NCBI GenBank assembly: GCA_003518365.1 | Contig: DOYU01000021.1 | Location: 492 to 64,491 of the forward strand | From: Candidatus Magasanikiibacteriota bacterium | GTDB taxonomy: Bacteria > Patescibacteriota > Patescibacteriia > Magasanikbacterales > UBA922 | DNA length: 64,000 nucleotides | Reading direction: 5' to 3' | Shown: one piece after another, positions 4,101 to 46,894 of the stretch | Layout: each line of letters begins with the position of its first letter | Numbering within the stretch: the first letter of the stretch is position 1 | The notes under the pieces: model-generated | What the model saw: only the letters and a program-made list of their open reading frames with translations | Told to the model about the DNA's origin: nothing | Database searches by the model: none | Translations under genes and position numbers: made by a program

Positions 4101-4277
4101 CACACTCTGCTCACCCAGCACCCACCGAATCGCGTCTGAGATATTGCTCTTGCCACTCCCATTTGGCCCCACGATTGCCGTAATACTTTGGCGGTCTTTA
4201 TATGGCGGCAAAAAAGATACCGTTGTCTTATCAGCAAAGGATTTGAAGCCGTGGAGTTCGATGGATTTGAGATGCAT
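1182..4277 (-). CDS. smc: Chromosome segregation protein SMC
   Basis: Track ORF 1182..4487. An internal Met gives MHLKSIELHGFKSFADKT...GPNGSGKSNISDAIRWVLGEQS (Walker A), a long coiled coil and a hinge. C-terminal LSGGERTMVSIALVCAI...FLDEVEAALDEAN is the ABC signature plus D-loop. Confidence 0.9.
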   Translation of the reverse strand: MHLKSIELHGFKSFADKTTVSFLPPYKDRQSITAIVGPNGSGKSNISDAIRWVLGEQSVKQLRGKKTADVIFAGSATKGQMSVASVSLHFDNSDHSAPIEYEDLIITRNLYRSGESEYLVNGGTVRLIDLQILLAKAQFAHGSYSVIGQGTIDRMLLQSPSERKAFFDEAAGIKEFQIKRHQSFLKLRKSKEHIDQASLLLNEITPRLKALSRQVKKLEQRKEVEIALRELQEGYYVTLGGHYHSALEKGRSDLFGIQKTYDDLSRSLSEIQTELATLAQGASREDVFAELQRAYSDVQKKKNELERERAILSGRMQTAYSQAGKQNIGWLEQKRDDVDTKVATLADEIARIQKEETDFVQKRMSAIKKVQEVSLDIQELHRKKQDLERMLREAETQTSVFQYTGLRAVEAILSERRRFGGVSGAVAQLGRVAAEYQLALDIAAGAHLTSIVVEDERVAESCIRYLRESKLGYATFLPLTKIRGRHISHDIESYLGRKGVIGLALDIVTYDEKFEEIFSYVLGDTLIVEDIETAREIGVGRVRMVTLDGDILEKSGSMKGGYRKQKSTGLSFSQESMYGAKYNEEEIKEELLSLDHKLTALTSVHRQEDETLRTLEAEIGKRTNKRELLESQKHEIDKEKAGFEQELSLSSMSEGDYDAAMKKLQQERDALDDDIETVEKELAVAQAKIDAFNAEEEKKRKRVFALQDEMQGVQTSLNGISEQRNTLQVEIAKLETKMEDLEEEIYHELHMSLGEVMNRVETMLTMDRLEAVQAEIDKLKYKLSLIGGIDQEVMDEYEETKTRHSHLSLQLDDLTKTAKDLETLIAELDEMMRKKRKKAFKQIKTEFKRYFTTLFEGGEADLIEIYGEESAQGGSALDETDEEALLVEDDLLDDEDDAKSRRKKRGKEILQGIDVKANPPGKKIKNIQSLSGGERTMVSIALVCAILRTNPSPFVFLDEVEAALDEANTLRFTNILQELATESQFILITHNRVSMHAADALYGVTMGNDGMSRLLSVKLGEAEKVVEKASS

Positions 4278-4480
4278 GTTTTCGGGACTAGAAGCTAGAA
4301 ACTGGACACTAGGGACAGAATCGCAAATATGGGATAATAATATCATATTTTGGGAGAGAGGAACAAGGTATTGACATTTTTTAGAAAATACGGTAGAGTC
4401 ATCGGCTTGTCTTTCTTCGCTCACGTATTTATAGTAAAAGGACGCAGTAACGAATTCCTCGTCACAAAGTCCAAACATAT

Positions 4481-5491
4481 ATGCCAAAACGGGTAGCCAC
4501 CCACATTTTCAAGGCCATCCAGGCAGCGAGAAAGATTCTCCTTGTGTCTCACAAAAATCCTGACGGAGACACGCTCGGATCTCTTGCTGCAATGATGCAA
4601 TACCTTCGCCATATCGAAAAACCACATGTGGCATTTTGTGCTACCGATATTTCTCCGTCACTGATGTTTTTGCCACACATCGACTATGTGACGCATACAC
4701 CGACCGTGTGGGATGATAAAGATATTGATCTCGTGATTGTATTTGATTCATCCAGTCCAGACTATGCTGGGGTAGAACACTTGCTCCCGATTATGAAAGA
4801 ACGTGGTGCACAGATCGCAAATATCGATCATCACAATACCAATCTTCAATATGGAGATTTCAACCTCGTCTTGCCAAAAGCAAGCTCAACGACAGAAATT
4901 GTCCATGACTTTTTTGCGCACAATAAAATAACCATCACACCAGCAATGGCAACATGCCTGCTCACTGGTATCATTACGGATACGGGGAATTTCACCAATG
5001 CAGCGACCACAAAACACTCGATGAATATTGCAAGCAAACTGATTGAAAAAGGCGGCAACATGGCACTCATTCAAGGATGGGTCCTGAAAGATAAGACTAT
5101 CAATGGACTCAAACTCTGGGGCACCGTACTCAGCAGAATGGCGCATCATGAAAAACTAGACATTGTCTACACGTATGTCACAAAAGAAGATATAGCAAAA
5201 CACGGCGTGACCGAACACGAAGTAGAAGGTATTGCAAACTTTATGAATAATATCAAAGATGGACGTGCTGGCATGATTCTAAAGGAAACAGAAGACGGCA
5301 ATTTCAAAGGGAGTTTTCGTACCACACATGATCATGTCGACGTCTCAGCTTTTGCAAAACTCTTTGGTGGCGGTGGACACAAAAAAGCAGCAGGCTTTTC
5401 TGTAGAAGGACCTATCGAACATGCACTCGAACATATCTTCGAAAAAATTCATCTTTTTGAGAATGGCGAACTTGCACTTGCTGAGGTGTAA
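4481..5491 (+). CDS. nrnA: DHH/DHHA1 phosphoesterase, NrnA-like bifunctional oligoribonuclease / pAp phosphatase
   Basis: Motifs DGDTLGS, NIDHHNTN and FGGGGHKKAAGF (DHHA1 GGGH). Confidence 0.8.
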   Translation: MPKRVATHIFKAIQAARKILLVSHKNPDGDTLGSLAAMMQYLRHIEKPHVAFCATDISPSLMFLPHIDYVTHTPTVWDDKDIDLVIVFDSSSPDYAGVEHLLPIMKERGAQIANIDHHNTNLQYGDFNLVLPKASSTTEIVHDFFAHNKITITPAMATCLLTGIITDTGNFTNAATTKHSMNIASKLIEKGGNMALIQGWVLKDKTINGLKLWGTVLSRMAHHEKLDIVYTYVTKEDIAKHGVTEHEVEGIANFMNNIKDGRAGMILKETEDGNFKGSFRTTHDHVDVSAFAKLFGGGGHKKAAGFSVEGPIEHALEHIFEKIHLFENGELALAEV

Positions 5492-5500
5492 CCATAAAAA

Positions 5501-5596
5501 CTCTCCCCCTAGTAGGGGGAGTTGGAGGGGGTTACCGCAGAAGCAAGAATAGTGGTAGTCCATAACCCCACCTTAATCCTCCCCTAGTAGGGGAGG
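5501..5596 (+). ncRNA. Two near-identical GC-stem hairpins with the same TAGTA loop, ~55 nt apart, immediately 3' of nrnA. Putative structured 3'-UTR element or small RNA.
   Basis: Read directly: CTCTCCCCC-TAGTA-GGGGGAG and CCTCCCC-TAGTA-GGGGAGG. Confidence 0.3.
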
Positions 5597-5606
5597 AAAT
5601 AATAAA

Positions 5607-5640
5607 AAAACAACTCACAAAAAATGTGAGCTGTTTTTTT
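5607..5640. terminator. Rho-independent terminator, bidirectional in form, after nrnA
   Basis: AAAAAAA-CAACTCACA-aaaaa-TGTGAGCTG-TTTTTTT: a stem-loop with A-run and T-run flanks. Confidence 0.7.
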
Positions 5641-5776
5641 ATTTCAAAAGGTTTCGTCTTTTGTCTTATGCTGAGAAGACTCATCAGTCCAGATATCATC
5701 TGAAAACCTCAATGCGACCCTGCAACACGATACCGAAGCATCGTGGCAGAGTCGCTGCAAGAGAACGTGGGAGGCA

Positions 5777-6274
5777 CTAGTACAGGTAGCGCACCACCTC
5801 GAACGTCTCAATTGCGCCTGGTTGCGGCGCAATCGGGACGAACGCCGAGATGTGCACGCCACCTTCCAGCCCGTCGACTTGGAAGACGTAGTCTTCCGTG
5901 TCCATGGTGAGGAACGCCCCACCGTAGACACCACCGTCGCCGGTGACGCCGAAGACCTCGATCTCGAAGATCATTCCGGCGTAGACCTGTACGGGGATCT
6001 CGCCGACGAACTCGTACTCGAACAGCGCGATGTCCGGATCGATGGGATCCCAGACCTGTTGCGCAAAGCCTGCCTCGTCCACCACGGTCAGCCGACAGAC
6101 CGAGATGCACTCGACCCACGCCAAGGGCGGGGTGATGGTCTCATCGCTCGGCGTCGTCGTGTCCACCTGCTCGGGGCAGGCGGCCTGGACGGGCGCGAGG
6201 GTGTCGGAGTCGCAGGCGGCGGCGAGGGTCAGGGTCAGGGTCAGGGCGATGGTGGCGACGAAGAAGCTACGCAT
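5777..6274 (-). CDS. Secreted lipoprotein, copy 1 of a tandem paralogous family, on the GC-rich island
   Basis: Internal Met at MRSFFVATIALTLTLTLAAACDSD (signal peptide plus lipobox Cys), with GGAGGA 8 nt upstream. C-terminal region FEYEFVGEIPVQVYAGMIFEIEVFGVTGDGG resembles copies 2 and 3. Sequence is visibly GC-rich. Confidence 0.6.
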   Translation of the reverse strand: MRSFFVATIALTLTLTLAAACDSDTLAPVQAACPEQVDTTTPSDETITPPLAWVECISVCRLTVVDEAGFAQQVWDPIDPDIALFEYEFVGEIPVQVYAGMIFEIEVFGVTGDGGVYGGAFLTMDTEDYVFQVDGLEGGVHISAFVPIAPQPGAIETFEVVRYLY

Positions 6275-20856: not shown

Positions 20857-20964
20857 AGCGAGTATGAATAGTATATCACAAAAATTATTCTGCTCACATG
20901 GCGAGTCTTGATTTTTTCGTGTATATTGAGTATTATAGCGAAGCAAAAAAAGATGGGCTTGTCC

Positions 20965-21023
20965 TGCCTTTCGCGAAAGGCGGAGCGCGTCCCTCCCTTC
21001 ACGAAGGGAGGGATATATCGTAT
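20965..21023. repeat. Two adjacent GC hairpins of one family. Hairpin A is repeated at 21322-21353, so the GIY-YIG gene is flanked by it on both sides.
   Basis: GGGCTTGTCCTGCCTTTCGCGAAAGGCGGA at 20965-20994, then TCCCTCCCTTCACGAAGGGAGGGA at 21000-21023. TGGCTTGTCCCTGCCTTTCGCGAAAGGCGGGA at 21322-21353. Both flanks also carry a TATAGTG motif. Confidence 0.5.
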
Positions 21024-21047
21024 AGTGTGTATCAAACAGGAGGGGCT

Positions 21048-21296
21048 ATGTTCTATACCTACCTATTGCAAAGTACAAAGGACAACAATTTTTATATTGG
21101 ATCAACGACGGATTTAAAAAGAAGATTCACCGAACATAACGATGGGAAAGTTTCTTCAACAAAATTTCGTCGTCCAATGAAATTGGTATATTACGAAGCC
21201 TATCCAGAAGAACATCTGGCACGAGTACGCGAACAAAAATTAAAAGATTTTGGTTCAGCATACACAGCACTATTAAAAAGATTAGGGTATAAATAA
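21048..21296 (+). CDS. GIY-YIG nuclease-superfamily small protein (82 aa)
   Basis: MFYTYLLQSTKDNNFYIGSTTDLKRRFTEHNDGK...YYEAYPEEHLARVREQKLK carries the YIG motif, conserved Arg and Glu. RBS AGGAGG upstream. Confidence 0.8.
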   Translation: MFYTYLLQSTKDNNFYIGSTTDLKRRFTEHNDGKVSSTKFRRPMKLVYYEAYPEEHLARVREQKLKDFGSAYTALLKRLGYK

Positions 21297-21411: not shown

Positions 21412-21484
21412 GGGCGCATCGTATAGTGGTAGTACATTGGTCTCCAAAACCAATTGCGTGGGTTCGATTCCTACTGCGCCTGCA
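21412..21484 (+). tRNA. tRNA-Trp (anticodon CCA)
   Basis: Manual fold: acceptor GGGCGCA/TGCGCCT with a G1-U72 wobble, D-arm GTAT/GTAC, anticodon stem TTGGT/ACCAA with loop CTCCAAA, T-arm GTGGG-TTCGATT-CCTAC. CCA is not encoded. Confidence 0.8.
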
Positions 21485-22911: not shown

Positions 22912-22946
22912 TGAAAAACAGAGTGAAAAACACTCTGTTTTTCTTT
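22912..22946 (+). terminator. Rho-independent terminator
   Basis: AAAACAGAGTG-aaaaa-CACTCTGTTTTTCTTTTTG. Confidence 0.65.
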
Positions 22947-22951
22947 TTGAC

Positions 22952-23212
22952 ATGAAGGGAAGAACGGAGTATTGTACAAGTAAACATATACATTATATTG
23001 GTATGGCTCATCAAAAAAATACAATCGGAAAAAACATCAAACGATTACGGCAAGAACAAAAAATTTCCCAAGATCGTCTTTCAAAACTTGCGGATCTTTC
23101 TTTGAATACTATTGTTACCGTTGAAAGTGGCGCAAACGAAAATCCTACTATTGATACGCTCACAAGGATTGCGAAAGCGTTTCAAGTTGGCGTGGATGAC
23201 CTCATAACATAA
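22952..23212 (+). CDS. XRE-family HTH transcriptional regulator, first gene of the defence operon
   Basis: IGKNIKRLRQEQKISQDRLSKLADLSLNTIVTVESG is a classic Cro/C1 HTH. The true start may be the internal Met at 23003. Confidence 0.75.
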   Translation: MKGRTEYCTSKHIHYIGMAHQKNTIGKNIKRLRQEQKISQDRLSKLADLSLNTIVTVESGANENPTIDTLTRIAKAFQVGVDDLIT

Positions 23213-23220
23213 CACCCACT

Positions 23221-24198
23221 ATGTCTAAACAAACACCTACCAATAATCTCGCTATCTACCAAGCTAAAAACGGCGCGATTGAATTTCGCGGTGATTTTGA
23301 GCAAGAGACGGTTTGGGGAAATTTAAATCAAATTGCCGATCTTTTTGGTCGCGACAAGTCCGTTGTTTCCCGCCATATAAAAAACATCTATAAAACAGGC
23401 GAATTAAACGAAACGGCAACTGTTGCAAAAATTGCAACAGTTCAAAAGGAAGGAAGGAGAGAAGTGATGCGTGAAATTGAGTACTTCAACCTTGATGTTA
23501 TTTTGTCCGTTGGGTACAGAGTAGATTCCAAGCAAGCCACGCAATTCCGCAAATGGTCAACGCAAGCGCTCAAGGCACACCTTGTAGACGGGTATACCAT
23601 CAACAAAAAACGCATCGGTAATAACTACGAACACTTTTTGCGTGCAGTGGCAGAAACAAAAGCACTCCTCCCTGTGGGCAACAAGGTTTCTACCGAGGAT
23701 ATACTTGAACTCGTGAACGCATTTGCTGCTACGTGGTTTTCGCTCGATGCATATGACAAAGACGCATTTCCTCAAAAAACAGCCTCAAAAAAGTCAGTTT
23801 CAGTTGACACTGTAAAGCTACTCAATGCGATTGGTGAGTTGAAGCAAGAACTGATAACCAAAAAGCAAGCAACAAACCTATTTGCACAAGAAAGGAAGAC
23901 GGGAACAGTAGAAGGAATCGTCGGAAATGTATTTCAGTCTGCCTTTGGCAAAGATGTATATCCAAGTATAGAAGAAAAGGCCGCACACATCCTCTACTTC
24001 ATGGTAAAAAATCATCCATTCACCGATGGCAACAAGCGCAGCGGAGCCTTTGCATTTGTTTGGTTTCTACGAAAAGCTGGTTTACTCCGACCAAGTCTTA
24101 CTCCAGAAGCGTTGACTGCCATTACCCTCCTCATTGCAGAGAGTAATCCAAAAGATAAAGACAAAATGGTGGGACTAGTGGTGATGTTAATCAAATAA
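23221..24198 (+). CDS. RhuM-family N-domain fused to a Fic/Doc-type C-domain
   Basis: RhuM-like N-terminus: NLAIYQAKNGAIEFRGDFEQETVWGNLNQIADLFGRDKSVVSRHIKNI...YFNLDVILSVGYRVDSKQATQFRKWSTQ. C-terminal HPFTDGNKRSG matches the Doc/Fic motif HxFx(D/N)GNKR. Confidence 0.7.
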   Translation: MSKQTPTNNLAIYQAKNGAIEFRGDFEQETVWGNLNQIADLFGRDKSVVSRHIKNIYKTGELNETATVAKIATVQKEGRREVMREIEYFNLDVILSVGYRVDSKQATQFRKWSTQALKAHLVDGYTINKKRIGNNYEHFLRAVAETKALLPVGNKVSTEDILELVNAFAATWFSLDAYDKDAFPQKTASKKSVSVDTVKLLNAIGELKQELITKKQATNLFAQERKTGTVEGIVGNVFQSAFGKDVYPSIEEKAAHILYFMVKNHPFTDGNKRSGAFAFVWFLRKAGLLRPSLTPEALTAITLLIAESNPKDKDKMVGLVVMLIK

Positions 24199-24200
24199 CT

Positions 24201-25322
24201 ATGGCAAATAAAAACCTTACAAAAGCAAAAAAGGCAAAAAATGATGAATTTTATACTCAATTTTCAGATATTCAAAAAGAAGTTGAGTCTTATCTTGAGT
24301 ATAACCCAGATACTTTTAAAGATAAGATAATTTACAGTAATTGTGACGACCCGTTCGAAAGTAATTTCTTTCGCTATTTTGTATTAAATTTTGATCGTTT
24401 AGGACTAAAGAGACTTATTTCAACGAGCTACAAACCCTCACCTGTTGCCAATACGCAACTGGGATTATTTGGCGATGACAAAACACTTGAAAAAGTAAAA
24501 GGCCGTCCAAAAGTAACCGCTAACAAATTCATCATCAACGAAGTTGGCGATATCGACGGCGACGGCTCTTTTACGCTAGAAGATATTGCCCAACAGCTTC
24601 GAGCGAATAAAAATAACGAATGGACTCCGCTTGAGGGCGATGGTGATTTTAGAAGTGCCGAATGTGTCGAGTTGCTCAAACAATCTGACATCGTAGTTAC
24701 TAATCCTCCATTTAGTTTATTCCGTGAATATATTACGCAACTTTTCGAACACAAAAAGCAATTTCTAATTATTGGTAGCATGAACTCAATTACTTACAAA
24801 GAAATCTTTGTGTTGATTAAAAATAATAAATTGTGGTTAGGTAATGGGTTTAATGCTGGCAATGCATATTTTTCAACTCCCAATGCGCGAAAAGATTTTG
24901 CTTCTGGTGTGTATGATGAAAAAACTGGTCTTGTAAAATTTCGGAATTGTCATTGGTTTACTAATTTAGATCATGGTCGTCGTCATCAGCCTCTTAATCT
25001 GATGACAACAAATGAAAACCTAAGATTTAATAAAAAAATGCAAGGCAAAACTACTTATGATCGTTATGACAATTATGACGCTATTGATGTACCATTTACA
25101 AAAGCTATCCCTTCTGACTACGAAGGAGTAATGGGTGTTCCTATAAGCTTTCTCGATAAGTACAATCCTAATCAGTTTGAGATATTGGGCTCTGACACAG
25201 ACATAAAAGAAGGTAAACTTCCACTTTTAATAATAAGTAAATGGAATGGAAAGCTAGACAGAGGTTATATACATGGAAAGAGAATCTTCAGTAGAATGTT
25301 TATTAAGCACAAAAAGAAATAA
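24201..25322 (+). CDS. N6-adenine DNA methyltransferase (NPPF motif), tentatively EcoRI-methylase-like family
   Basis: TNPPF catalytic motif in [15 protein letters not shown]-terminal [10 protein letters not shown] block. Starts 3 nt after the upstream stop. Confidence 0.6.
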
Positions 25323-25323
25323 T

Positions 25324-26487
25324 ATGAAAACAACCTTAAAAAATGATATCACCGTTAAAGAAGTTTGCGACGGCTTTGAATACAACGAATTTGAAGGAAA
25401 AGGTTTGTTTGGTCTCTCTGGCAAACTAACTATTCAGCCAGAGTATCAGCGTAATTATATTTATGCTGACGGCAAACGTGACGTTGCTGTAATTGACTCA
25501 ATTTTAAAGGGTTATCCTATCGGTTTGATCTATTTCAATCAGGCTGGTAAAGACGAGTTTGAAGTATTAGATGGTCAACAGCGCATCACGAGTATAGGTC
25601 GTTTTGTTACTGGCAAATTTGCTGTTAAAGATAAAAACGGTCACGAGCAATACTACAGCGGTATGTCTGAGAGTCAGCGTGAGCAAATTATGAAGACTAA
25701 GTTGTTGGTGTATGTGTGCGAAGGTGACGAGCCTGAGATCAAAGATTGGTTCAAGACTATTAACATTGCTGGAGTGCCATTAACTGAACAAGAGATTCTT
25801 AACGCGGTATATTCTGGGCCATTCGTTACTCGAGCTCGTGAAGAGTTTAGTAATAGTCAAAATACCAACATCCAGAAATGGAGTGCGTACATCGCAGGTG
25901 ATATCAAGCGTCAGGCATACTTGGAACGAGCTCTAGATTGGGTTTCTGATGGATCAATCGATAGTTATATGAGCAAACACCGCAATGACAAAAATATTAC
26001 TGAACTAAAAAAACATTTTGATACTATCATTGACTGGGTCTCAACTATCTTTACTGACGTTGAGAGCGATATGAAAGGCCTTGAGTGGAACAGGATTTAT
26101 GAGACATATCACAAGAAGAAATACAATCCGACTACCATCTCTGCTTCTGTTCAGAAGCTCTATGCTGATGGTTTCGTAAAAAGTCGCAAAGGCATTTTTG
26201 AATATGTTTTAGGCGGAGAAGTTGAAACTAAACTACTTGAAATACGAGTATTTGAGGACTCAACAAAACGTTCAGTTTACGAAGCTCAAACTGCTATTGC
26301 AAAGAAAAAAGGTGTTTCAAACTGTCCACATTGTGCTATTGGGCATGATGCCAATAAAGAAAAAATTTGGACTTTAAGCGATATGGATGCTGATCATGTG
26401 GCTGCTTGGAGTAAAGGTGGAAAAACGGAAGCAAAAAACTGTGAGATGTTGTGTAAAACGCATAATCGTGCCAAAGGTAATCGGTAA
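25324..26487 (+). CDS. DUF262 (ParB/Srx-like) N-domain plus C-terminal HNH nuclease; GmrSD/SspE-like architecture
   Basis: DUF262 hallmark [11 protein letters not shown]...[13 protein letters not shown]-terminal CPHCAIGHD...[12 protein letters not shown]...[10 protein letters not shown] (CxxC...DH...N...CxxHN). Start MKTTLK sits 2 nt after the MTase stop. Confidence 0.65.
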
Positions 26488-26493
26488 AATATT

Positions 26494-27987
26494 ATGCACC
26501 TCACAAAAACCGACTATCTCGAATATACCTTTTGCAAAAAGAACCTTTGGCTCAAAAAACATAAGCCAGAGCTTTTTGAAGATGTAGAATTGTCGGAATT
26601 TGAAAAAAAAATTATTGAGGAAGGGAATTTGGCTGATGAGGCTGCAAGAAATTTATTTCCTGATGGAGAATTGATCGGTATCGTCGGAGTAAATGCTATA
26701 CCTGTTACAAAAAAGATACTGGAGAAAAACCCACCAGTATTATTTCAAGGTGCATTTTCATTCAATGACTTTTTTGTTCAAGCGGATATTTTACGTTACA
26801 ACGACATTTTAAAGGGTTGGGAACTTTACGAAGTAAAAGCAACAAATGATGTAAAACGAGAAATCCCTCATCACCATATCAACGACCTTGCGTTTCAAAA
26901 AATTGTAATTGAACAAAATGGGATACACATTATAAAAGCAGGCGTTATTCACCTTAACGGCGAATATAGACAACGAGGCAAAGTAAACTATAACGAACTG
27001 TTCATCATTGCCGAGCTTACTGATGAAGTACTAGAAGCGGAAGAACTTGTACGTGGGCAGATGCGTGATATTCACACATATATGGACATGGCAGAAGAAA
27101 AAAATTGTGAATGTTTGTATCGAGGTAGAAATGCACAATGTACAACGTTCGCTTACTCTAATCCTGAAGTGCCTGAATACTCTGTTCACGATATCAATAG
27201 AATTGGCGGAAGCAAAAAACTGTTTTTTGACTGGATAGATAGAGGGATCTACCGGCTCGAAGATATAGATAACCCAGAAAATCTTACAGGATCAAAAAAG
27301 GCACAATATACTGCGTACATAACAGGTAAGCCTCTCATAGACAAAGAAGCAATACAAAAAGAACTTGGTGAATTGGTTTTTCCTCTCCAATTTTTTGATT
27401 ACGAAGGATATTCTAGTGCTATCCCCAGCTTTAACGGCTTCGGTGCGTATGAACAAGTGCCTTTTCAATATTCACTACATACGCTCCATGAAGACGGAAC
27501 GCTTGAACACCGAGAATATCTCATCACAGAGCCAGAGAATGATTTGACTTTGCCATTGGTAGAAAGAATGAAAGAAGACTTTGATGATGTTGGTACTGTC
27601 ATATCTTGGTACAAATCATACGAATCACAACGAAACGACAAACTAGCAGAACTTCATCCAAATCATGCAGACTTTCTTATTGGCCTCAATGACAGAATGT
27701 TTGACCTCATGACAATGTTTTCCAAAAATTATTATGTGGATGCACGGTTCAAAGGGAGTGCAAGCATAAAAAATGTTCTGCCGGTCATTGTACCGGAATT
27801 AACGTACAAAGTACTTGGTATTCAAAAAGGAGATCAAGCAGTAGAACGTTGGGAAAAAATGATATTTGCAGATATTCATCCAGATGAAAAGAAAGAAATA
27901 AAAAAAGATTTGCTTGAGTATTGCAAATTGGATACTTTGGCGATGGTGAGGATTTGGGAGTTTCTAATGAAAATAAAAAATGTATGA
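26494..27987 (+). CDS. DUF2779-family protein (predicted PD-(D/E)xK-like nuclease N-domain plus RNase-H-like C-domain)
   Basis: N-terminal LTKTDYLEYTFCKKNLWL and C-terminal YCKLDTLAMVRIW are the blocks I recall for DUF2779. The identification is from memory, not searched. Confidence 0.5.
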   Translation: MHLTKTDYLEYTFCKKNLWLKKHKPELFEDVELSEFEKKIIEEGNLADEAARNLFPDGELIGIVGVNAIPVTKKILEKNPPVLFQGAFSFNDFFVQADILRYNDILKGWELYEVKATNDVKREIPHHHINDLAFQKIVIEQNGIHIIKAGVIHLNGEYRQRGKVNYNELFIIAELTDEVLEAEELVRGQMRDIHTYMDMAEEKNCECLYRGRNAQCTTFAYSNPEVPEYSVHDINRIGGSKKLFFDWIDRGIYRLEDIDNPENLTGSKKAQYTAYITGKPLIDKEAIQKELGELVFPLQFFDYEGYSSAIPSFNGFGAYEQVPFQYSLHTLHEDGTLEHREYLITEPENDLTLPLVERMKEDFDDVGTVISWYKSYESQRNDKLAELHPNHADFLIGLNDRMFDLMTMFSKNYYVDARFKGSASIKNVLPVIVPELTYKVLGIQKGDQAVERWEKMIFADIHPDEKKEIKKDLLEYCKLDTLAMVRIWEFLMKIKNV

Positions 27988-29219
27988 ATATGCACAGCCC
28001 TCTTTCTTCAATTCAACAACTACAATCAATATTAAGTAGTCCTTCGAAAAAAATCGGATTCCTTTTTGGGGCTGGAATTTCAATGGAAAAAAAAGATAAG
28101 AGTGATTTGGTGGTAGGAACTGATGACAAAAAAGATGAGAACGGTAATGTAATAAAAGAAGGAATGACAAGTCTCGCAATTAAAAATTTATCAGAGGAAC
28201 AAAAAAAAGCTGTAGATTTAATAAAGAATGAGGTTGAAACAGAAAATAAAAAATTTAACATCGAAAGTCTCTTATCAAAAATTTCTGAAAAAGAAAGAGC
28301 TGTTGGCGATCAAGAGCTTTGTGGTTTAACAAAAGAAAAATTATTAAATTTGAGAAAGGATATACAGGATAAAATAAGAGATTTGGTTTCCGTACATAGG
28401 GTGGATGATAAAGAAATTGATATTGAGGCATTAAATCACAGCACATTTGCTCAATGGATTAGTAATGCTGATAGAGAATTCTCAGTAGAAATTTTTACAA
28501 CAAATTACGATTATCTACTAGAACTAGCACTTGAAAAACAAGGAATTCCCTATTTCGATGGTTTTGTGGGTAGTTATGAAGCATTTTTTTGCCCTGAATG
28601 GATTGAAGATGACACGCCTGTCAAAAATTGGGTAAAGCTATGGAAATTACATGGTTCACTTGGTTGGGCACAGAATAGTAAAAAAGAAATAATTAGAACA
28701 TCTGGTAATACCGGTGCGGCGATGATATACCCTTCATTTTTGAAATATGACCATTCCAAAAAACAGCCATACTTGAGCTATATGGATAGATTGTCCGATT
28801 TTTTAAAGCAAGAAGATTCTGTCTTATTTGTTTGTGGTTATTCATTTGGAGATGAACATATAAATGAAATAATTTTGACAGCACTTACGCACTCTCGCTC
28901 ATCACATGTATTTGTGTTGAAAAATGGAGAAATGGAAAAATCTAGCCATCTTTCAAAAGAAATTGCACAAAAAAATTCTAGAATTTCAGTTTATGCAAAA
29001 CGTACCTGTATTATTGGAGGTAAATTTGGAGAATGGAAGCTCGATAGAGAACCAGACAGAAATGAATCCTACAACATATTAGATTATGCTTTTGATGAAG
29101 ACGCTACACCTGATGGAGTACCATGGACAGGAAGAGGTGATTTTCGTCTTGGAGACTTTAAAAAATTTACGGAGTTTTTAGAGCTTTTCTACCATAATTC
29201 GAGATATATCAATAAATGA
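27984..29219 (+). CDS. sir2: SIR2-family domain protein, the NADase partner of the SIR2-HerA system
   Basis: GFLFGAGIS...FTTNYDYLLE...KLHGSLGW...VCGYSFGDEHINEII is the SIR2_2-type motif set. The start ATG overlaps the DUF2779 stop (ATGA). Confidence 0.75.
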   Translation: MNMHSPLSSIQQLQSILSSPSKKIGFLFGAGISMEKKDKSDLVVGTDDKKDENGNVIKEGMTSLAIKNLSEEQKKAVDLIKNEVETENKKFNIESLLSKISEKERAVGDQELCGLTKEKLLNLRKDIQDKIRDLVSVHRVDDKEIDIEALNHSTFAQWISNADREFSVEIFTTNYDYLLELALEKQGIPYFDGFVGSYEAFFCPEWIEDDTPVKNWVKLWKLHGSLGWAQNSKKEIIRTSGNTGAAMIYPSFLKYDHSKKQPYLSYMDRLSDFLKQEDSVLFVCGYSFGDEHINEIILTALTHSRSSHVFVLKNGEMEKSSHLSKEIAQKNSRISVYAKRTCIIGGKFGEWKLDREPDRNESYNILDYAFDEDATPDGVPWTGRGDFRLGDFKKFTEFLELFYHNSRYINK

Positions 29220-29220
29220 C

Positions 29221-30999
29221 ATGAGAAATAAAGAGACATTTATAGGTAAAGTGAGAAGTGTCACAGGTAGTACGCTTGCTATTGAGTTACACGAAGATAT
29301 TAGATCAACGTTACCTATTATTGATGGGATATTATATAGAATTGGACAAATTGGTTCTTTTATAAGAATTCCTTTTGGTTATGTTGATTTATATGGAGTA
29401 ATTACACAAGCTGGATCAGACGCTATACCAGAAAAATTAGCGGAGCAAGAGGGTTTGAAAGGATCTCGCTGGATTAAGGCTACTCTTATTGGAGAAAGGG
29501 TCGGTAATAGATTTGAAAGAGGGGTGTTGCAATTTCCTATTGCTGATGACGAAGTTCATTTGGTCACGAAGGATGATTTGGAATTGATATATGGTGGAAT
29601 TGATGAATCAAAGTCAATAGTAGTTGGACAGGTCAGTGCCTCTGAAAATCTGTCAGCAAGAATAGATATAGACAGATTAATTAATAGACATTGCGCCATA
29701 CTTGGCTCTACAGGAAGTGGAAAATCAAATACAGTTTCTGTAATACTAGAAGCAATTGCTTCTAGACATCATGATGATGAAAATATAAAAAGTACGAGAA
29801 TTCTTTTGGTCGACCCTCATGGTGAGTATGGCGATATTTTAAAAAATTATAGTCAAATATTTAAGTTAGGAGCAGACTTGTCAAAAGGAGAAAAAGAACT
29901 AGTTGTTCCATATTGGGCTTTACCTTTTCAAGAATTTATAAAAAGTTTTCCAGGTAATCTAACTGAAAAGCAGGAAGAGTACATACGTGAAGAAATTCTA
30001 CAAAGAAAGATTAAGGCTTCTAAAAAATTAAATCCTATTCCACAAGAGGAGGCAATTACAGCTGATAGCCCTATCCCTTTCAGTATTAAACAACTATGGT
30101 TTGACCTTATTGATATAGAGCAAAAAACTTTTAATAACAAGGAGTTAACCGAAGTCGCACTCGAATCACTAGGCGATCCTGAGGCACTTAAGCCTAACAA
30201 ATACTCCATAGCGTCAACAAATAATACAGCCCCTTTCAGTAATAACAGGGTTGCGCAGGGTATTTCAAGTTTTTTAAACTTAATGCGGAATAGAATTTTA
30301 GATCAAAGATTTAAGTTTTTATTCAAACTAGACACGCTCTCTCCTGGTATTGACGGAACTATTTCAAGTGATTTAGACAGTCTCATTGAAAGTTGGATTG
30401 GGACAGAGAAACCAATAACTATTTTAGACCTATCGAGTATACCCTCTGAAATCATGGGTTCAATTTCTGGTTCTTTGCTTTCAATAATTTATGAATTTCT
30501 ATATTGGGGACAGAATGAAGATGTGGGAGGTCGCCAAACACCTATTCTGTTTGTACTAGAAGAGGCACATAATTATCTAAAGTCAGGCGAGAATTCTATT
30601 GCCTCAAGAACTGTACAAAAAATTGCAAAAGAGGGTAGAAAATATGGTTCAGGTTTACTACTCGTAACCCAACGACCTTCTGAACTGGATGATACTGTTT
30701 TGAGTCAATGTGGTTCAGTTATCGCGTTGAGAATGACAAATTCTAGCGATAGAGGCCACGTAAAGAGTGCTGTCGAGGATTCCCTAAACGAGTTAGTTGA
30801 TTTGCTTCCGAGCCTAAGAACAGGTGAAGGTTTAATTATGGGTGAATGTGTAAAATTACCTATGCGAACTAAATTTTCTAAAACTAGGGAATCTAAAAGT
30901 ACAGACCCACTTGTTTCTAAGCAGTGGAAAACAACTCTTCCAGAATCCTCTAACTATAATAAAGTTTTAGAAAATTGGAGAAATAATAAATTTTCTTAA
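29221..30999 (+). CDS. herA: HerA-like (DUF87) ATPase/helicase, partner of SIR2
   Basis: Walker A AILGSTGSGKSNTVSVILE, Walker B ILFVLEEAHNYL, and LLLVTQRPSELDDTVLSQCGSVIALRMTN (sensor/arginine-finger region). Starts 2 nt after the SIR2 stop. Confidence 0.8.
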   Translation: MRNKETFIGKVRSVTGSTLAIELHEDIRSTLPIIDGILYRIGQIGSFIRIPFGYVDLYGVITQAGSDAIPEKLAEQEGLKGSRWIKATLIGERVGNRFERGVLQFPIADDEVHLVTKDDLELIYGGIDESKSIVVGQVSASENLSARIDIDRLINRHCAILGSTGSGKSNTVSVILEAIASRHHDDENIKSTRILLVDPHGEYGDILKNYSQIFKLGADLSKGEKELVVPYWALPFQEFIKSFPGNLTEKQEEYIREEILQRKIKASKKLNPIPQEEAITADSPIPFSIKQLWFDLIDIEQKTFNNKELTEVALESLGDPEALKPNKYSIASTNNTAPFSNNRVAQGISSFLNLMRNRILDQRFKFLFKLDTLSPGIDGTISSDLDSLIESWIGTEKPITILDLSSIPSEIMGSISGSLLSIIYEFLYWGQNEDVGGRQTPILFVLEEAHNYLKSGENSIASRTVQKIAKEGRKYGSGLLLVTQRPSELDDTVLSQCGSVIALRMTNSSDRGHVKSAVEDSLNELVDLLPSLRTGEGLIMGECVKLPMRTKFSKTRESKSTDPLVSKQWKTTLPESSNYNKVLENWRNNKFS

Positions 31000-31010
31000 T
31001 TATTAAACAT

Positions 31011-31223
31011 ATGGAAAGAAAACCAGTACAATCATCAAATCTTGCTGCTATTGGATATGATCCTTTGACAGAAACTTTGGAGGTGGAATTCACAGATGGG
31101 TCTGTCTATGAGTATAAGAACGTCTCTCAATTTATATACGATGAGCTGATGAATGCTTCGTCTCATGGTTCTTATTTTAATAGAGAAATCAGTAAAAGTT
31201 TTCCGTATGAGAAAATAGGTTAA
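31011..31223 (+). CDS. KTSC-domain small protein (70 aa), last gene of the operon
   Basis: PVQSSNLAAIGYDPLTETLEVEFTDGSVYEYKNVSQFIYDELMNASSHGSYFNREI matches the KTSC domain consensus. Confidence 0.7.
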   Translation: MERKPVQSSNLAAIGYDPLTETLEVEFTDGSVYEYKNVSQFIYDELMNASSHGSYFNREISKSFPYEKIG

Positions 31224-43066: not shown

Positions 43067-44905
43067 ATGTCTCAAGAAGAATCAATCATTGCTCAAAGCA
43101 AAAAATTTCGTCGTGGAGGATACATACCAAAACTTTTGAAAAATAAAAAAGTACTGATGATAGTGCTTGTTTTGGTAATGACTCTTTCAGGCGGATATTA
43201 TGTGTATTCAAAAATCGCAAAGAACAATGATACCGCTGTTGCTACGAAAAAAACATATACCGTAAAAAAAGGTGATATTCGTATTTCTACCAATGCTGAC
43301 GGCAGTATTGTTGCCAAAGATGGTGTGAGTTTGTCTTTTTCGAGTACAGGTGTCACGATAAAAAATGTATATGTAAAAGAAGGCGATATCGTCAAAAAAG
43401 GTGACAACATTGCAACAGCCGATACAGGTACCCAAAGCATTGATTTGCAATCAGCGTATGCTTCGTATACGTCTGCGAAAGCAAGTTATGAAGAAAAAAT
43501 TGCAGGACCTACAGAAAATGATTTGGCTTCCTACAAAAATTCTGTTGAAAGTGCTCAAGCAAGTCTTGATAAGACGTTGAAACAAAATGAATATGCAATA
43601 CAGAGTGCGGAAAGTTCTCTAGAAACAGCTCTTGCTAATTTGAAATTGTCAGAAGGTGGTGAACAGAGTCAGATAGTACAAGATGCGTACAACGATATAT
43701 ATCTGGATTCACTCAGTGCGGTGACGAATCTGAATGCAGCGCTTACTGCCTCAGATAATATTCTTGGTATTGACAACATATTTGCCAATGATGTTTTTGA
43801 AAATGTATTATCAGTCTTAGATAGTGCGAGCATTTCTCAGGCAAGAAATTCTTATCTTGTTGCAAAACATACGTTGACAACTGCAGAAAATGCCGTTGTG
43901 GTATTGAATGCTTCTTCTCCTCAAGGAGATATGTTGGCGAGTGCCCAATTAGTTCTAGTAGCTATTACCCAAATGCATCAGCATTATTATGATATGCAAG
44001 AAATGCTTGTAGCAACGCTACCCATTGGTGATCTGTCACAAAGCTCCTTAGAGAGTATGCGAAGCAGTGTGAATAGCAAAAAATCATCCATGGTTTCTTT
44101 GCTCAGTTCTTTCAATGCTTCTCTGAAAGCCATAGATACAGCAACATCAAGTTATGATTCATATAAAAGAGCATATGAAAATGCTCTCCAAGCATTGGAA
44201 AAAGCAAAGAGTGATGCTGAGTCTTCTGAAATAAGTGCCAGATTGAGTCTACAAAATGCAGAACAACAGTTGAAAGAGGCATCGGCTCCTTTGACAGAGT
44301 CTGAGCGTAGTTCCGCCAAGAGTAGTCTTGCAAATGCAAGTGCAAGTGTACAAAAACTTCAATATCAAATAGATCAATCTACGCTCAAATCCCCGATTGA
44401 TGGTGAAGTGGTATTGTTGAATGGGAAAACAGGAGACATCATCGTGGATGAAAAAAATTCTCCTTTTGTAACAATTTTGAATAAAGAAACATTTTTTGTT
44501 GAGACAAATATAGAGGAATCTGAAATAAGTAACATCCAAGTTGGTCAAAAAGCTCACATCATTGTTGATGCACTCGATGAAGCAACGCTTGAGGGTACGG
44601 TCAATTTTATTTCCCTTACTTCTGAAAGTGGTACTGGTGGTGTTGTGACGTACCTTGTGCGTGTGTTGCTAGATGATACAGAGTATGTTGATGTGAGAGA
44701 AGGAATGACGGCAGGTGTGGACTTCGTGATTGCGGAATCAAATGATGTCCTGATGGTGCCAGTGCAAGCAGTACAAAATGTAAATGGCAAACCTGCAGTA
44801 ACCATGAACAATGGAGATACCAGAGACGTTGTCACTGGTTTTACAGATGGACAAACAGTGGAGATTATTTCTGGATTAGAAGTTGGAGAACAAGTAACCT
44901 ATTAA
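43067..44905 (+). CDS. HlyD/MacA-family periplasmic adaptor (membrane-fusion protein)
   Basis: N-terminal TM helix, long coiled coil, C-terminal beta-barrel region. Sits upstream of an ABC ATPase and permease. Confidence 0.7.
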   Translation: MSQEESIIAQSKKFRRGGYIPKLLKNKKVLMIVLVLVMTLSGGYYVYSKIAKNNDTAVATKKTYTVKKGDIRISTNADGSIVAKDGVSLSFSSTGVTIKNVYVKEGDIVKKGDNIATADTGTQSIDLQSAYASYTSAKASYEEKIAGPTENDLASYKNSVESAQASLDKTLKQNEYAIQSAESSLETALANLKLSEGGEQSQIVQDAYNDIYLDSLSAVTNLNAALTASDNILGIDNIFANDVFENVLSVLDSASISQARNSYLVAKHTLTTAENAVVVLNASSPQGDMLASAQLVLVAITQMHQHYYDMQEMLVATLPIGDLSQSSLESMRSSVNSKKSSMVSLLSSFNASLKAIDTATSSYDSYKRAYENALQALEKAKSDAESSEISARLSLQNAEQQLKEASAPLTESERSSAKSSLANASASVQKLQYQIDQSTLKSPIDGEVVLLNGKTGDIIVDEKNSPFVTILNKETFFVETNIEESEISNIQVGQKAHIIVDALDEATLEGTVNFISLTSESGTGGVVTYLVRVLLDDTEYVDVREGMTAGVDFVIAESNDVLMVPVQAVQNVNGKPAVTMNNGDTRDVVTGFTDGQTVEIISGLEVGEQVTY

Positions 44906-44916
44906 GACTGAATGGT

Positions 44917-45627
44917 ATGAGTGAAGAAGTTGTCATACAATTGAAAGATGTCCACAAATCTTATTATTTAGGCAATGGCGAAGAAGTACAGGTCTTAAAA
45001 GGGGTTGATGTAGAAATAAAAAAGGGAGAATTTGTCGCACTCATGGGAGAGTCTGGTGGTGGAAAAACCACGTTACTCAATATTCTAGGATGCCTCCATC
45101 CCCTCTCTTCTGGTACATATTTACTCGAAGGAGAAAATATTGGAGATGTCCGTGATGATGGAACGCTCGCGTTTATCCGTAACAAAAAAATGGGCTTTGT
45201 GTTTCAACAATTCAATTTGTTGTCACGTCTCAGTGCTCTCAAAAATGTGGCATTGCCAAGTCTGTATGCAGGAGTCGACAAAGAAACGAGAAACACAAAA
45301 GCAAAAGAACTGTTAAAACTTTTATCAATGGAAGAAAGAACAGAACACAAACCAACAGAGCTTTCGGGTGGTCAACAACAACGTGTCGCCATAGCACGCG
45401 CGCTGATGAACGACCCTGAAATAATTTTGGCAGATGAACCGACAGGTGCTCTTGATTCAAAAAATGGTTTGGAGATTATGGAAATTTTCAAAAATTTCAA
45501 AAACCAACAAAAGACGGTCGTGATGGTAACGCATACCGCAGAAGTTGCAAAATACGCTGACAGAATTATCTATATGCGTGATGGTAAAATTTTGGATACT
45601 CATTATCAGTTGAAGAGTGAGTACTAA
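44917..45627 (+). CDS. ABC transporter ATP-binding protein (MacB/LolD-type)
   Basis: GESGGGKTTLLNILG (Walker A), [26 protein letters not shown]. Confidence 0.9.
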   Translation: MSEEVVIQLKDVHKSYYLGNGEEVQVLKGVDVEIKKGEFVALMGESGGGKTTLLNILGCLHPLSSGTYLLEGENIGDVRDDGTLAFIRNKKMGFVFQQFNLLSRLSALKNVALPSLYAGVDKETRNTKAKELLKLLSMEERTEHKPTELSGGQQQRVAIARALMNDPEIILADEPTGALDSKNGLEIMEIFKNFKNQQKTVVMVTHTAEVAKYADRIIYMRDGKILDTHYQLKSEY

Positions 45628-45685
45628 TTTTTTGTGAATATACTAGGTAAAAAATTAGAGTTTACGAGGATCATTTGTTGAACGT

Positions 45686-46894
45686 ATGTTTTTAGAAATA
45701 TTAAAAATGGCAGGTGAAGCACTTTGGTCCAATAAGATCCGAAGTTTTTTGTCAGTGCTTGGTATTATTATTGGGGTGTCTACGGTTATCGTAGTAGTAG
45801 GCATTGGGACTGGAGCAAAAAAACAAATAGAAGAACAATACAAAAATCTGAGTGCGACGACCATCATGGTCATGAAACAGATGGGACGAGATGCTGTTTC
45901 TTCTTCAAAACTGGAAGCAGAAGATGCCACTGTTATTTCTCAAAATATTGAACATATAAAGAGTACCACCGTTTTTATTTCGGGCAACTCAACGGTTGCG
46001 TATGGACAAGAATCTGGTTCAGTAAATACATTTGGTATCTATGATACTTTTTTTGATATAGGTAATTTAGAGCTAGAAGCTGGGAGACTTCTCACTCAAG
46101 AAGATGTGAGTAATAAATCAAAAGTCATTGTCATTGGTTCAGGTGCGTTGACGACACTTTTTGGTGAGGAGGCTGAGACTACTCAAGCGGTCGGTCAATT
46201 TATTACTGTTTCTAATAAAAAAATGGAAATAGTCGGCATCCTCAAAGAAAATGGAGGAAGTGTGATGGGGAGAATGTCTTATGATGATGCGGTGTTTGTC
46301 CCATATACGACGGCTGAAAGTATGTTGGGAAATCAAGCCAACATGATGATTGTGGTACTTATGGATGATGTGGACAATTTGCAAACAGGCATGGATGATA
46401 TTACCACTATCTTGCGAATTCAGCATAAACTCAAAGCAAGTCAGGCTGATGATTTTCGTATTTTTGATCCTGGTTCTATTGTCGGCGCTGCCCAAAGTTC
46501 TGCAGATACCATGTCATTACTGTTGGTATCGATCGCAACGATTGTGCTTATTGTATCTGGCGTCGGTATTATGAATGTCATGTTTGTGACGGTGGCAGAA
46601 AGAACAAAAGAAATTGGTATTGCAAAAGCAATTGGGGCACAAAAACAAGATATCTTGACTCAATTTTTGGCTGAATCAGTGATTTTATCAATTGGGGGAG
46701 GAATGGTAGGAGCATTACTTGGTCAAATCATCATTCCCATTTTGAATACATTTGAAGGTTGGTATGTTGTTCCATCTGTTTCTGGAGTGATATTGTCTTT
46801 TACGTTCTCAGCTATTGTAGGTTTATTTTTTGGATTTTATCCAGCACTCAAAGCAAGCAAACTCGATCCTGTAGATGCGTTGAGGAGTGAATAG
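45686..46894 (+). CDS. ABC transporter permease, FtsX/MacB-like
   Basis: N-terminal TM helix, large periplasmic domain and a C-terminal 3-TM FtsX bundle (LDPVDALRSE end). Confidence 0.8.
   Translation: MFLEILKMAGEALWSNKIRSFLSVLGIIIGVSTVIVVVGIGTGAKKQIEEQYKNLSATTIMVMKQMGRDAVSSSKLEAEDATVISQNIEHIKSTTVFISGNSTVAYGQESGSVNTFGIYDTFFDIGNLELEAGRLLTQEDVSNKSKVIVIGSGALTTLFGEEAETTQAVGQFITVSNKKMEIVGILKENGGSVMGRMSYDDAVFVPYTTAESMLGNQANMMIVVLMDDVDNLQTGMDDITTILRIQHKLKASQADDFRIFDPGSIVGAAQSSADTMSLLLVSIATIVLIVSGVGIMNVMFVTVAERTKEIGIAKAIGAQKQDILTQFLAESVILSIGGGMVGALLGQIIIPILNTFEGWYVVPSVSGVILSFTFSAIVGLFFGFYPALKASKLDPVDALRSE

Follow-up and report, generated by a model that had tools for sequence, protein, structure and literature searches.

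BanLI, a restriction–modification (R-M) system of Bifidobacterium, is known from a single experimental study. Its methyltransferase M.BanLI (41.7 kDa), which was aligned with M.EcoRI in the original work (O'Connell Motherway et al. 2014, PMC3990576), methylated only one of the two strands of its asymmetric site 5'-RTC(m6A)GG-3' (m6A, N6-methyladenine) in Escherichia coli, and R.BanLI (43.5 kDa) is encoded next to it (PMC3990576). The BanLI region, comprising an integrase-like gene, M and R, lowered P1 plating about 10-fold (P1vir efficiency of plating, EOP, ~0.1), and transformation was 1.8-fold better with M.BanLI methylation; the authors interpreted BanLI as an "incomplete Type IIS" system whose second methylase had been lost (PMC3990576). 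A gene of Bifidobacterium animalis subsp. lactis annotated "DUF262 domain-containing protein" is listed in REBASE as a Type II restriction endonuclease (REase) with the site RTCAGG (PMC13091528). Here we compare with this system a two-gene locus of a Candidatus Magasanikiibacteriota bacterium (GenBank assembly GCA_003518365.1, contig DOYU01000021.1), in which a gene for a putative N6-adenine DNA methyltransferase (MTase; M) precedes a gene for a DUF262-HNH nuclease (R). All coordinates, unless a contig is named, refer to the 64,000-nucleotide (nt) stretch of DNA that was analysed, termed the window.

Homology of the window pair to BanLI

M (24201-25322, + strand) encodes a 373-amino-acid (aa), 43.2 kDa N6-adenine DNA methyltransferase of the EcoRI/BanLI family, and R (25324-26487, +) a 387-aa, 44.2 kDa protein in which a DUF262 (ParB/Srx-like NTPase) domain, a helical middle region and a zinc-finger HNH nuclease domain follow one another. 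The published banLI.M reverse primer, searched in metagenome contigs, recovered five human-gut contigs, and all four published BanLI primers mapped exactly to contig L176, where they delimit the integrase-like gene (2200-3420), M.BanLI (3498-4589) and R.BanLI (4589-5707), the last abutting or overlapping M. Comparison with these genes revealed full-length identity of 40% between window R and R.BanLI (aa 6-387 versus 5-372, E = 1e-99) and of 45% between window M and M.BanLI (E = 1e-102). The two pairs share the same Pfam architecture (PF13651; PF03235 plus PF01844), the same PADLOC models and the same M-to-R order with abutting or overlapping genes. By homology, the window pair adds a member to the BanLI R-M family, which is known, already catalogued and experimentally touched. 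It can be annotated as a BanLI-family R-M system rather than as a Type IV enzyme or an oddity, and the novelty of the pair as such is low; what is new is a pattern at the level of the family, described below, of a constant R beside a shuffled M.

Window M matched Pfam PF13651 (EcoRI_methylase) from end to end (425 bits, E = 3e-127) and the PADLOC model MTase_II (PDLC03297, E = 2.8e-106), as M.BanLI matched both. It carries the motifs DEFYT (aa 15), CDDP (aa 48) and NPPF (aa 168), the last being the catalytic motif IV (aa 168-171, 24702-24713, +), in which N168, P170 and F171 are invariant in an alignment including M.EcoRI and M.BanLI. Along its whole length, window M shares 42% identity with M.EcoRI (E = 5e-87), and all motifs of the latter are present in it. 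The resemblance to EcoRI ends with the methyltransferase: EcoRI has the order R then M, whereas the window has M then R, and on true EcoRI plasmids the gene upstream of M is an annotated R.EcoRI, distinct from the DUF262-HNH nuclease of the window. R.EcoRI is a PD-(D/E)XK Type IIP enzyme unrelated to DUF262-HNH nucleases. The EcoRI site GAATTC is not depleted in the window.

Window R matched PF03235 (GmrSD_N/DUF262) at aa 36-163 (81.6 bits), PF01844 (HNH) at aa 344-387 (25 bits) and, over its full length, the PADLOC model REase_II (PDLC03418, E = 1.5e-88). R.BanLI fills this model completely (1-372/372, 905 bits), which indicates that PDLC03418 is in effect R.BanLI. Conservation was assessed in an alignment of 73 homologues reaching down to 33% identity. 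In the DGQQR motif of the DUF262 domain (aa 83-87, 25570-25584, +), to which NTP hydrolysis is assigned in GmrSD/BrxU, D83, G84 and R87 are invariant and Q85 and Q86 are conserved at ≥90%; Q42-R43 and Q156/E157/N160 are invariant or nearly so. The HNH domain (26323-26487, +) comprises a zinc finger (C334, C337, C377, H380) together with D357-H358, N372 and N381; C334 and H358 are invariant, C337, D357, N372 and C377 are conserved at ≥90%, and N381 is kept among four aligned proteins. The 160-aa middle region is conserved as well. Searches of NCBIfam yielded a model for neither protein, and searches of PDB sequences with R, with M and with an M profile returned nothing significant; the closest solved folds to R are BrxU, SspE and DndI, with BrxU as the top structural match. 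In BrxU, the DGQQR motif positions and hydrolyses nucleotide, and nucleoside triphosphate (NTP) binding and hydrolysis are required before DNA is cleaved (PMC8565348).

These results bear out the initial annotation that an MTase gene is followed by a DUF262-HNH gene, since the Pfam domains were found and the catalytic motifs of both proteins are intact (in R: Q42, R43, DGQQR, C334/C337/C377, D357-H358, N372 and N381), so that the degeneration of catalytic residues which it had considered does not apply. Its suggestion of an unusual R-M pair, a Type II-like system with an HNH REase, was right in kind, both genes being homologous to BanLI. Both open reading frames (ORFs) were confirmed on the + strand at the positions it had assigned. 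The 2-nt gap that it had placed between the two genes needs correction: the M stop codon (TAA, 25320-25322) and the R start codon (ATG, 25324) are 1 nt apart, and the 2 nt separate the stop of the upstream Fic gene (24198) from the M start (24201). The ORF list opens R at an upstream ATG (25273); because more than 100 homologues are exactly 387 aa long and begin with MKTTL, the start was set at 25324.

Very probably, then, the window pair is a two-gene R-M cassette of the BanLI family. The basis for this is the BanLI homology of both genes, the intact catalytic residues, and the near-obligate linkage of the two genes across phyla, plasmids and phages. In such a cassette, M would place N6-methyl groups on adenines within a short target sequence of the host DNA, and R, translated from the same transcript 1 nt past the M stop, would attack DNA lacking this mark and cut it with its HNH active site. 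By analogy with BrxU and SspE, R would probably need nucleotide binding or hydrolysis by its DUF262 domain. Methylation and restriction are known from the BanLI homologue only, and the two systems differ in several respects: identity is no higher than the 40-45% given above, the host is a candidate-phyla-radiation bacterium instead of Bifidobacterium, and the window pair lies within a long co-directional defence array where BanLI sits beside an integrase. Two hypervariable segments of M, var1 and var2, are unrelated between the two methyltransferases, suggesting that the window target is probably not RTCAGG.

The forward primer of pWSK29-RM.BanLI binds where the integrase-like gene begins (2200 on L176) and not at M (3498), implying that integrase, M and R were all present in the tested construct and that the synthetic ribosome-binding site preceded the integrase gene. 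This arrangement may bear on the weakness of BanLI restriction.

Linkage of M and R across genomes, plasmids and phages

R has more than 8000 database relatives, and 449 clusters of the 50% level matched it at E ≤1e-30. Among the 120 best cluster representatives, identity to R is 73-91%; Patescibacteria supply most of them, Gammaproteobacteria and other groups the rest. In three unrelated contigs the flanks differ in each, and an EcoRI_methylase gene stands directly upstream of R every time. The analysis was widened to 85 genome loci (reference genomes plus individually examined contigs, three of these being the same place) and 80 loci on IMG/VR viral contigs. M lies upstream of R on the same strand at 82 of the genome loci, the three exceptions having less than 1.5 kb of upstream sequence, and at 71 of the viral loci; one further viral locus, L163, has M downstream, and eight have none, six of these eight being cut by the contig end. 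Altogether an EcoRI-family M accompanies R at 154 of 165 loci, and the M-then-R order holds in all M-containing loci examined save L163. Pairing with a cognate-looking MTase, which the initial annotation had regarded as atypical, is therefore the ordinary state of this nuclease.

Members of the family are very numerous, above all among Patescibacteria, with plasmids and phages as vehicles of their spread. The pair occurs on plasmids from Firmicutes, Actinobacteria and Proteobacteria (Enterococcus, lactobacilli, Pediococcus, Leuconostoc, many Actinobacteria, Aeromonas, Variovorax, Sulfitobacter and others), and an EcoRI-family M is still found beside R at 36% R identity; some plasmids of 9-11 kb hold little beyond rep, M and R. 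In a Flavobacterium phage, the pair forms a moron adjoining the tape-measure gene. The persistence of the linkage across genome, viral, plasmid and phage loci excludes chance adjacency, and it argues against a nuclease indifferent to the methylase. Searching the literature for PF13651 or EcoRI-family methylases paired with DUF262, we found no paper treating the pair as a family.

Two R genes in prophage context (L104, 4001-5176; L124, 4001-5173) have intact catalytic residues and no M within 4 kb upstream; just upstream of R in L104 there is a possible 17-aa remnant of an M C-terminus (E = 1.9, not significant). A natural single-chain M-R fusion of 688 aa, P0177, is encoded at 5001-7067 of L178. 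Its host reads TGA as a sense codon (seven in-frame TGA, 33% G+C), and its M part is degenerate, with DEFYT changed to NLFAS, CDDP to NAGDG and NPPF to TFPSF. No second EcoRI-family M was found within the 8-kb locus L178.

A constant nuclease beside shuffled methyltransferase cassettes

To compare the conservation of the two proteins, 74 loci with complete M and R were analysed as 2701 locus pairs. In 93% of these, R is the better conserved of the two, the mean identity being 76.5% among R and 66.9% among M proteins; R proteins hardly vary in length (mostly 386-389 aa), and M proteins range from 358 to 444 aa. The divergence of M is concentrated in var1 (aa 216-255, 24846-24965, +) and var2 (aa 329-362, 25185-25286, +), both candidate target-recognition elements. 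Among locus pairs whose R proteins are ≥88% identical, mean identity is 81-88% in the M core (aa 1-215), 45% in var1 and 19% in var2. Across 194 M sequences, both segments fall into discrete, mutually unrelated types, with at least 16 types of var1, at least 32 types of var2 (24-69 aa long) and at least 64 var1/var2 combinations. The 14 R proteins closest to window R (89-93% identity) stand beside at least five var1 and at least seven var2 types, and among 27 close R proteins no R column covaried with the M cassette type, the best columns being simply the most variable ones. In locus L033, whose R is 89% identical to window R, the M gene (~4877-5990) has a var1 (GNGMGRWISGFIVPESYDLFGTEARLDEKGNRIVSTNSCLWLTNI) closely like the corresponding segment of M.EcoRI and an unrelated var2. 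Residues Y204, C223 and H235 of M.EcoRI, in or beside its var1 segment, may contact DNA, a possibility that was given no weight as evidence here.

A conserved core with shuffled hypervariable cassettes is the behaviour of target-recognition domains in Type I, Type III and Type IIG systems. If the cassettes set specificity, a near-constant R could not match it by itself and would have to obtain its target through M. We tentatively suggest that R does not read the target sequence itself and that var1 and var2 set specificity for both proteins, M serving R as Mod serves Res in Type III systems, a reading that we regard as a serious possibility short of a probable one. It agrees with four observations: BanLI methylates one strand, the NTPase motif is invariant, M precedes R in a fixed order, and an M-R fusion occurs naturally; the intact R of L104 and L124 without M within 4 kb was also counted in its favour. 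The comparison with Type III extends to the mod-then-res order, which matches M then R, to the single MTase in both, to the one-strand methylation of an asymmetric site (a parallel drawn from BanLI only), and to the pairing of a conserved NTPase-plus-nuclease subunit with a methylase that varies in its recognition segments, candidate ones in the M-R family. Mod proteins are beta-class MTases, and Res proteins join a superfamily 2 (SF2) ATPase to a PD-(D/E)XK nuclease. By contrast, neither M nor R is homologous to Type III proteins, and no Pfam domain of an SF2 ATPase, a PD-(D/E)XK nuclease or a beta-class Mod was found in R or M.

Taken further, the BanLI family could possibly be not Type II but a separate and very widespread kind of R-M system, functionally Type III-like and built from unrelated parts, an idea that we put forward with reserve. 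A ParB-like NTPase-HNH nuclease without sequence specificity of its own would then be targeted by its methyltransferase, whose two recombining cassettes would set the site, and methylation of one strand would suffice because cleavage would need NTP-dependent communication. The "Type II" label of the BanLI family may accordingly be wrong. If R is indeed guided by M, the appropriate class for the family would be that of M-guided, NTP-dependent restriction systems, and it would offer a small (~760 aa in total), reprogrammable one. In the literature that could be searched, we found no description of a constant NTPase-HNH nuclease combined with a methylase that shuffles its cassettes.

Several findings weigh against this account. 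The first two touch the cassette as a whole. Oligonucleotide avoidance, calculated for all 4-6-mers against a maximal-order Markov expectation in the window and 912 kb of carrier loci, gave no recognition motif and no single clearly depleted palindrome; the signals were generic ones only (GGCC, GATC, TCGA), with ratios of 1.11 for GAATTC and 0.89-1.08 for RTCAGG. BanLI restriction, with the EOP and the transformation effect cited above, is weak. As to the guidance of R by M, var1 and var2 could be surface loops that do not set specificity, and aa 78-145, which differ among M.EcoRI, M.BanLI and window M, could hold the recognition elements instead. Other genes lie between M and R at about 24 of the 85 genome loci, which is unusual for subunits of one enzyme, and the relative M.EcoRI works with a self-sufficient Type IIP nuclease.

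The last two points are also among those that favour a canonical Type II (IIP/IIS) system, in which R would read the target alone, presumably through its helical middle region and with metal as the only cofactor, M would read the same sequence independently, and the variable M cassettes would be irrelevant loops. This alternative differs from the guidance of R by M solely in where specificity lies, and it is quite conceivable, if not the expected case. PADLOC labels both proteins Type II, the B. animalis homologue has its Type II entry in REBASE (PMC13091528), and the conserved 160-aa middle region of R could bind DNA. Opposed to it, indirectly, are the greater conservation of R than of M, whereas Type II systems usually show the opposite; the pairing of near-identical R proteins with M of unrelated cassettes; the invariant DGQQR NTPase motif, which would be without a role in a metal-only enzyme; and the one-strand methylation of an asymmetric site by a single M, which under simple Type II logic would leave one daughter duplex unprotected after replication.

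SspE and DndI, two of the three closest solved folds to R, suggest another arrangement, in which DUF262 would sense the methyl mark on self DNA and tune the NTPase and nuclease, rather than methylation simply blocking cleavage. SspE and DndI are likewise DUF262-NTPase plus HNH effectors that work with a host DNA-modification module marking self, and they couple recognition of the mark to GTP hydrolysis and licensing of the HNH domain (PMC13251355). They differ from the window pair in the mark, which is phosphorothioate made by SspABCD/DndBCDE where a single MTase is predicted to make m6A, and in the domain families and sizes of the nuclease. We consider such sensing of the methyl mark by R improbable.

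It is less probable still that R is a GmrSD-like, modification-dependent Type IV nuclease directed against foreign modified DNA and unrelated to the MTase beside it. The N-terminal domain of R is indeed GmrSD_N and its top structural match is BrxU, so that the GmrSD/SspE-type architecture proposed in the initial annotation stands as far as the DUF262-plus-HNH plan and the N-terminal DGQQR are concerned. It fails at the C-terminal domain, which is DUF1524 in GmrSD and BrxU: PF07510 (DUF1524) gave no match in R at E ≤0.01, and the zinc-finger PF01844 HNH occupies its place. GmrSD and BrxU are also larger (~560-600 aa versus 387 aa). PADLOC models of GmrSD, BrxU and SspE gave no match to R beyond weak ones of the GmrSD-like HEC-05/06, the best with E = 6e-8, covering only short stretches of the N-terminal domain. 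Moreover, the family of R is almost obligately paired with a methyltransferase, a linkage seen at more than 150 loci and still present at 36% identity, which is not expected of an unrelated neighbour, and the BanLI region cloned with its M restricts unmodified P1 from ordinary E. coli (PMC3990576). This evidence, drawn from gene context and homology, speaks against both the modification-dependent nuclease envisaged at the outset and the standard Type IV enzyme unrelated to the MTase.

An orphan MTase and a solitary nuclease brought together by chance or by clustering are hardly credible: the defence island is dense and in other genomes unrelated defence genes have entered beside M and R as well as the space separating them, yet the flanks differ in every genome while M-R order and strand stay, and a single-chain fusion occurs in nature. 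A toxin-antitoxin reading was considered and rejected.

Cargo genes and the surrounding array

At the ~24 genome loci with intervening genes, one to three genes separate M and R, always co-directionally, making the M-R interspace an insertion hotspot (for example in L007, L011, L018, L026, L051, L053, L061 and L076); further genes lie closely upstream of M. The interspace holds AAA_21/AAA_15 ATPases, DUF2130, AIPR, Bro-N, AntA and Dam-type methylase genes and several families without a Pfam match, and RhuM, AbiEii, Fic, T5orf172 and MazG-like genes also belong to the inserted or adjoining families. With cargo both between and upstream of its two genes, the M-R cassette is a site at which other defence or mobile genes often settle.

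In the window, a small XRE-type helix-turn-helix (HTH) protein (23003-23212, +; PF01381, E = 2.6e-11; PADLOC 'Control_protein', E = 1.4e-8) and a protein with a RhuM N-terminal domain fused to Fic/DOC (23221-24198, +; PADLOC candidate PDC-S23, end to end, E = 6.6e-112) precede M. In L018 and L057, HTH homologues of 61-62% identity are encoded 5-15 nt upstream of M, and because they abut M there, the HTH protein may be the controller of the R-M cassette and the RhuM-Fic gene an insertion. RhuM/Fic relatives recur near or inside the M-R cassette at about 17 of the 85 genome loci. A strong terminator-like hairpin (22913-22943) has a 13-bp stem, and after it comes a promoter-like TTGACA-17-TATTGT (22947-22975); together they suggest that the transcription unit begins here. 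The ORF list starts the HTH gene at 22952; the promoter-like site extends 3' of that ATG, so that the gene probably starts at the ATG at 23003. An alignment of six regions upstream of HTH genes revealed no conserved operator (C-box).

The pair lies in a stretch of low G+C content (0.32-0.38 versus 0.44-0.47 around it) that begins directly after a tRNA-Trp gene (21412-21483), the start border of the defence array, and reaches ~31.3 kb. A GIY-YIG ORF (20898-21296) is located just upstream of tRNA-Trp. Between ~22.95 and 31.2 kb every gene is on the + strand, with junctions ranging from a 4-nt overlap to an 11-nt gap. Downstream of R, a DUF2779 protein gene (26494-27987, +) starts 6 nt after R and overlaps the start of SIR2 (27984-29219, +; PADLOC E = 7e-108), which is followed by HerA (29221-30999, +; PADLOC E = 2e-150) and a KTSC-domain protein gene (31011-31223, +); the SIR2-HerA anti-phage system and the KTSC gene thus share the co-directional array with the R-M pair. 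The DUF2779 protein showed a weak Cas4-like (PD-(D/E)xK) N-terminal match in PADLOC, and its gene stands beside the cassette at only two of the 85 genome loci. A second low-G+C stretch (43067-46894, +) is an ordinary-looking transporter operon of HlyD, ABC ATPase and MacB-FtsX genes.

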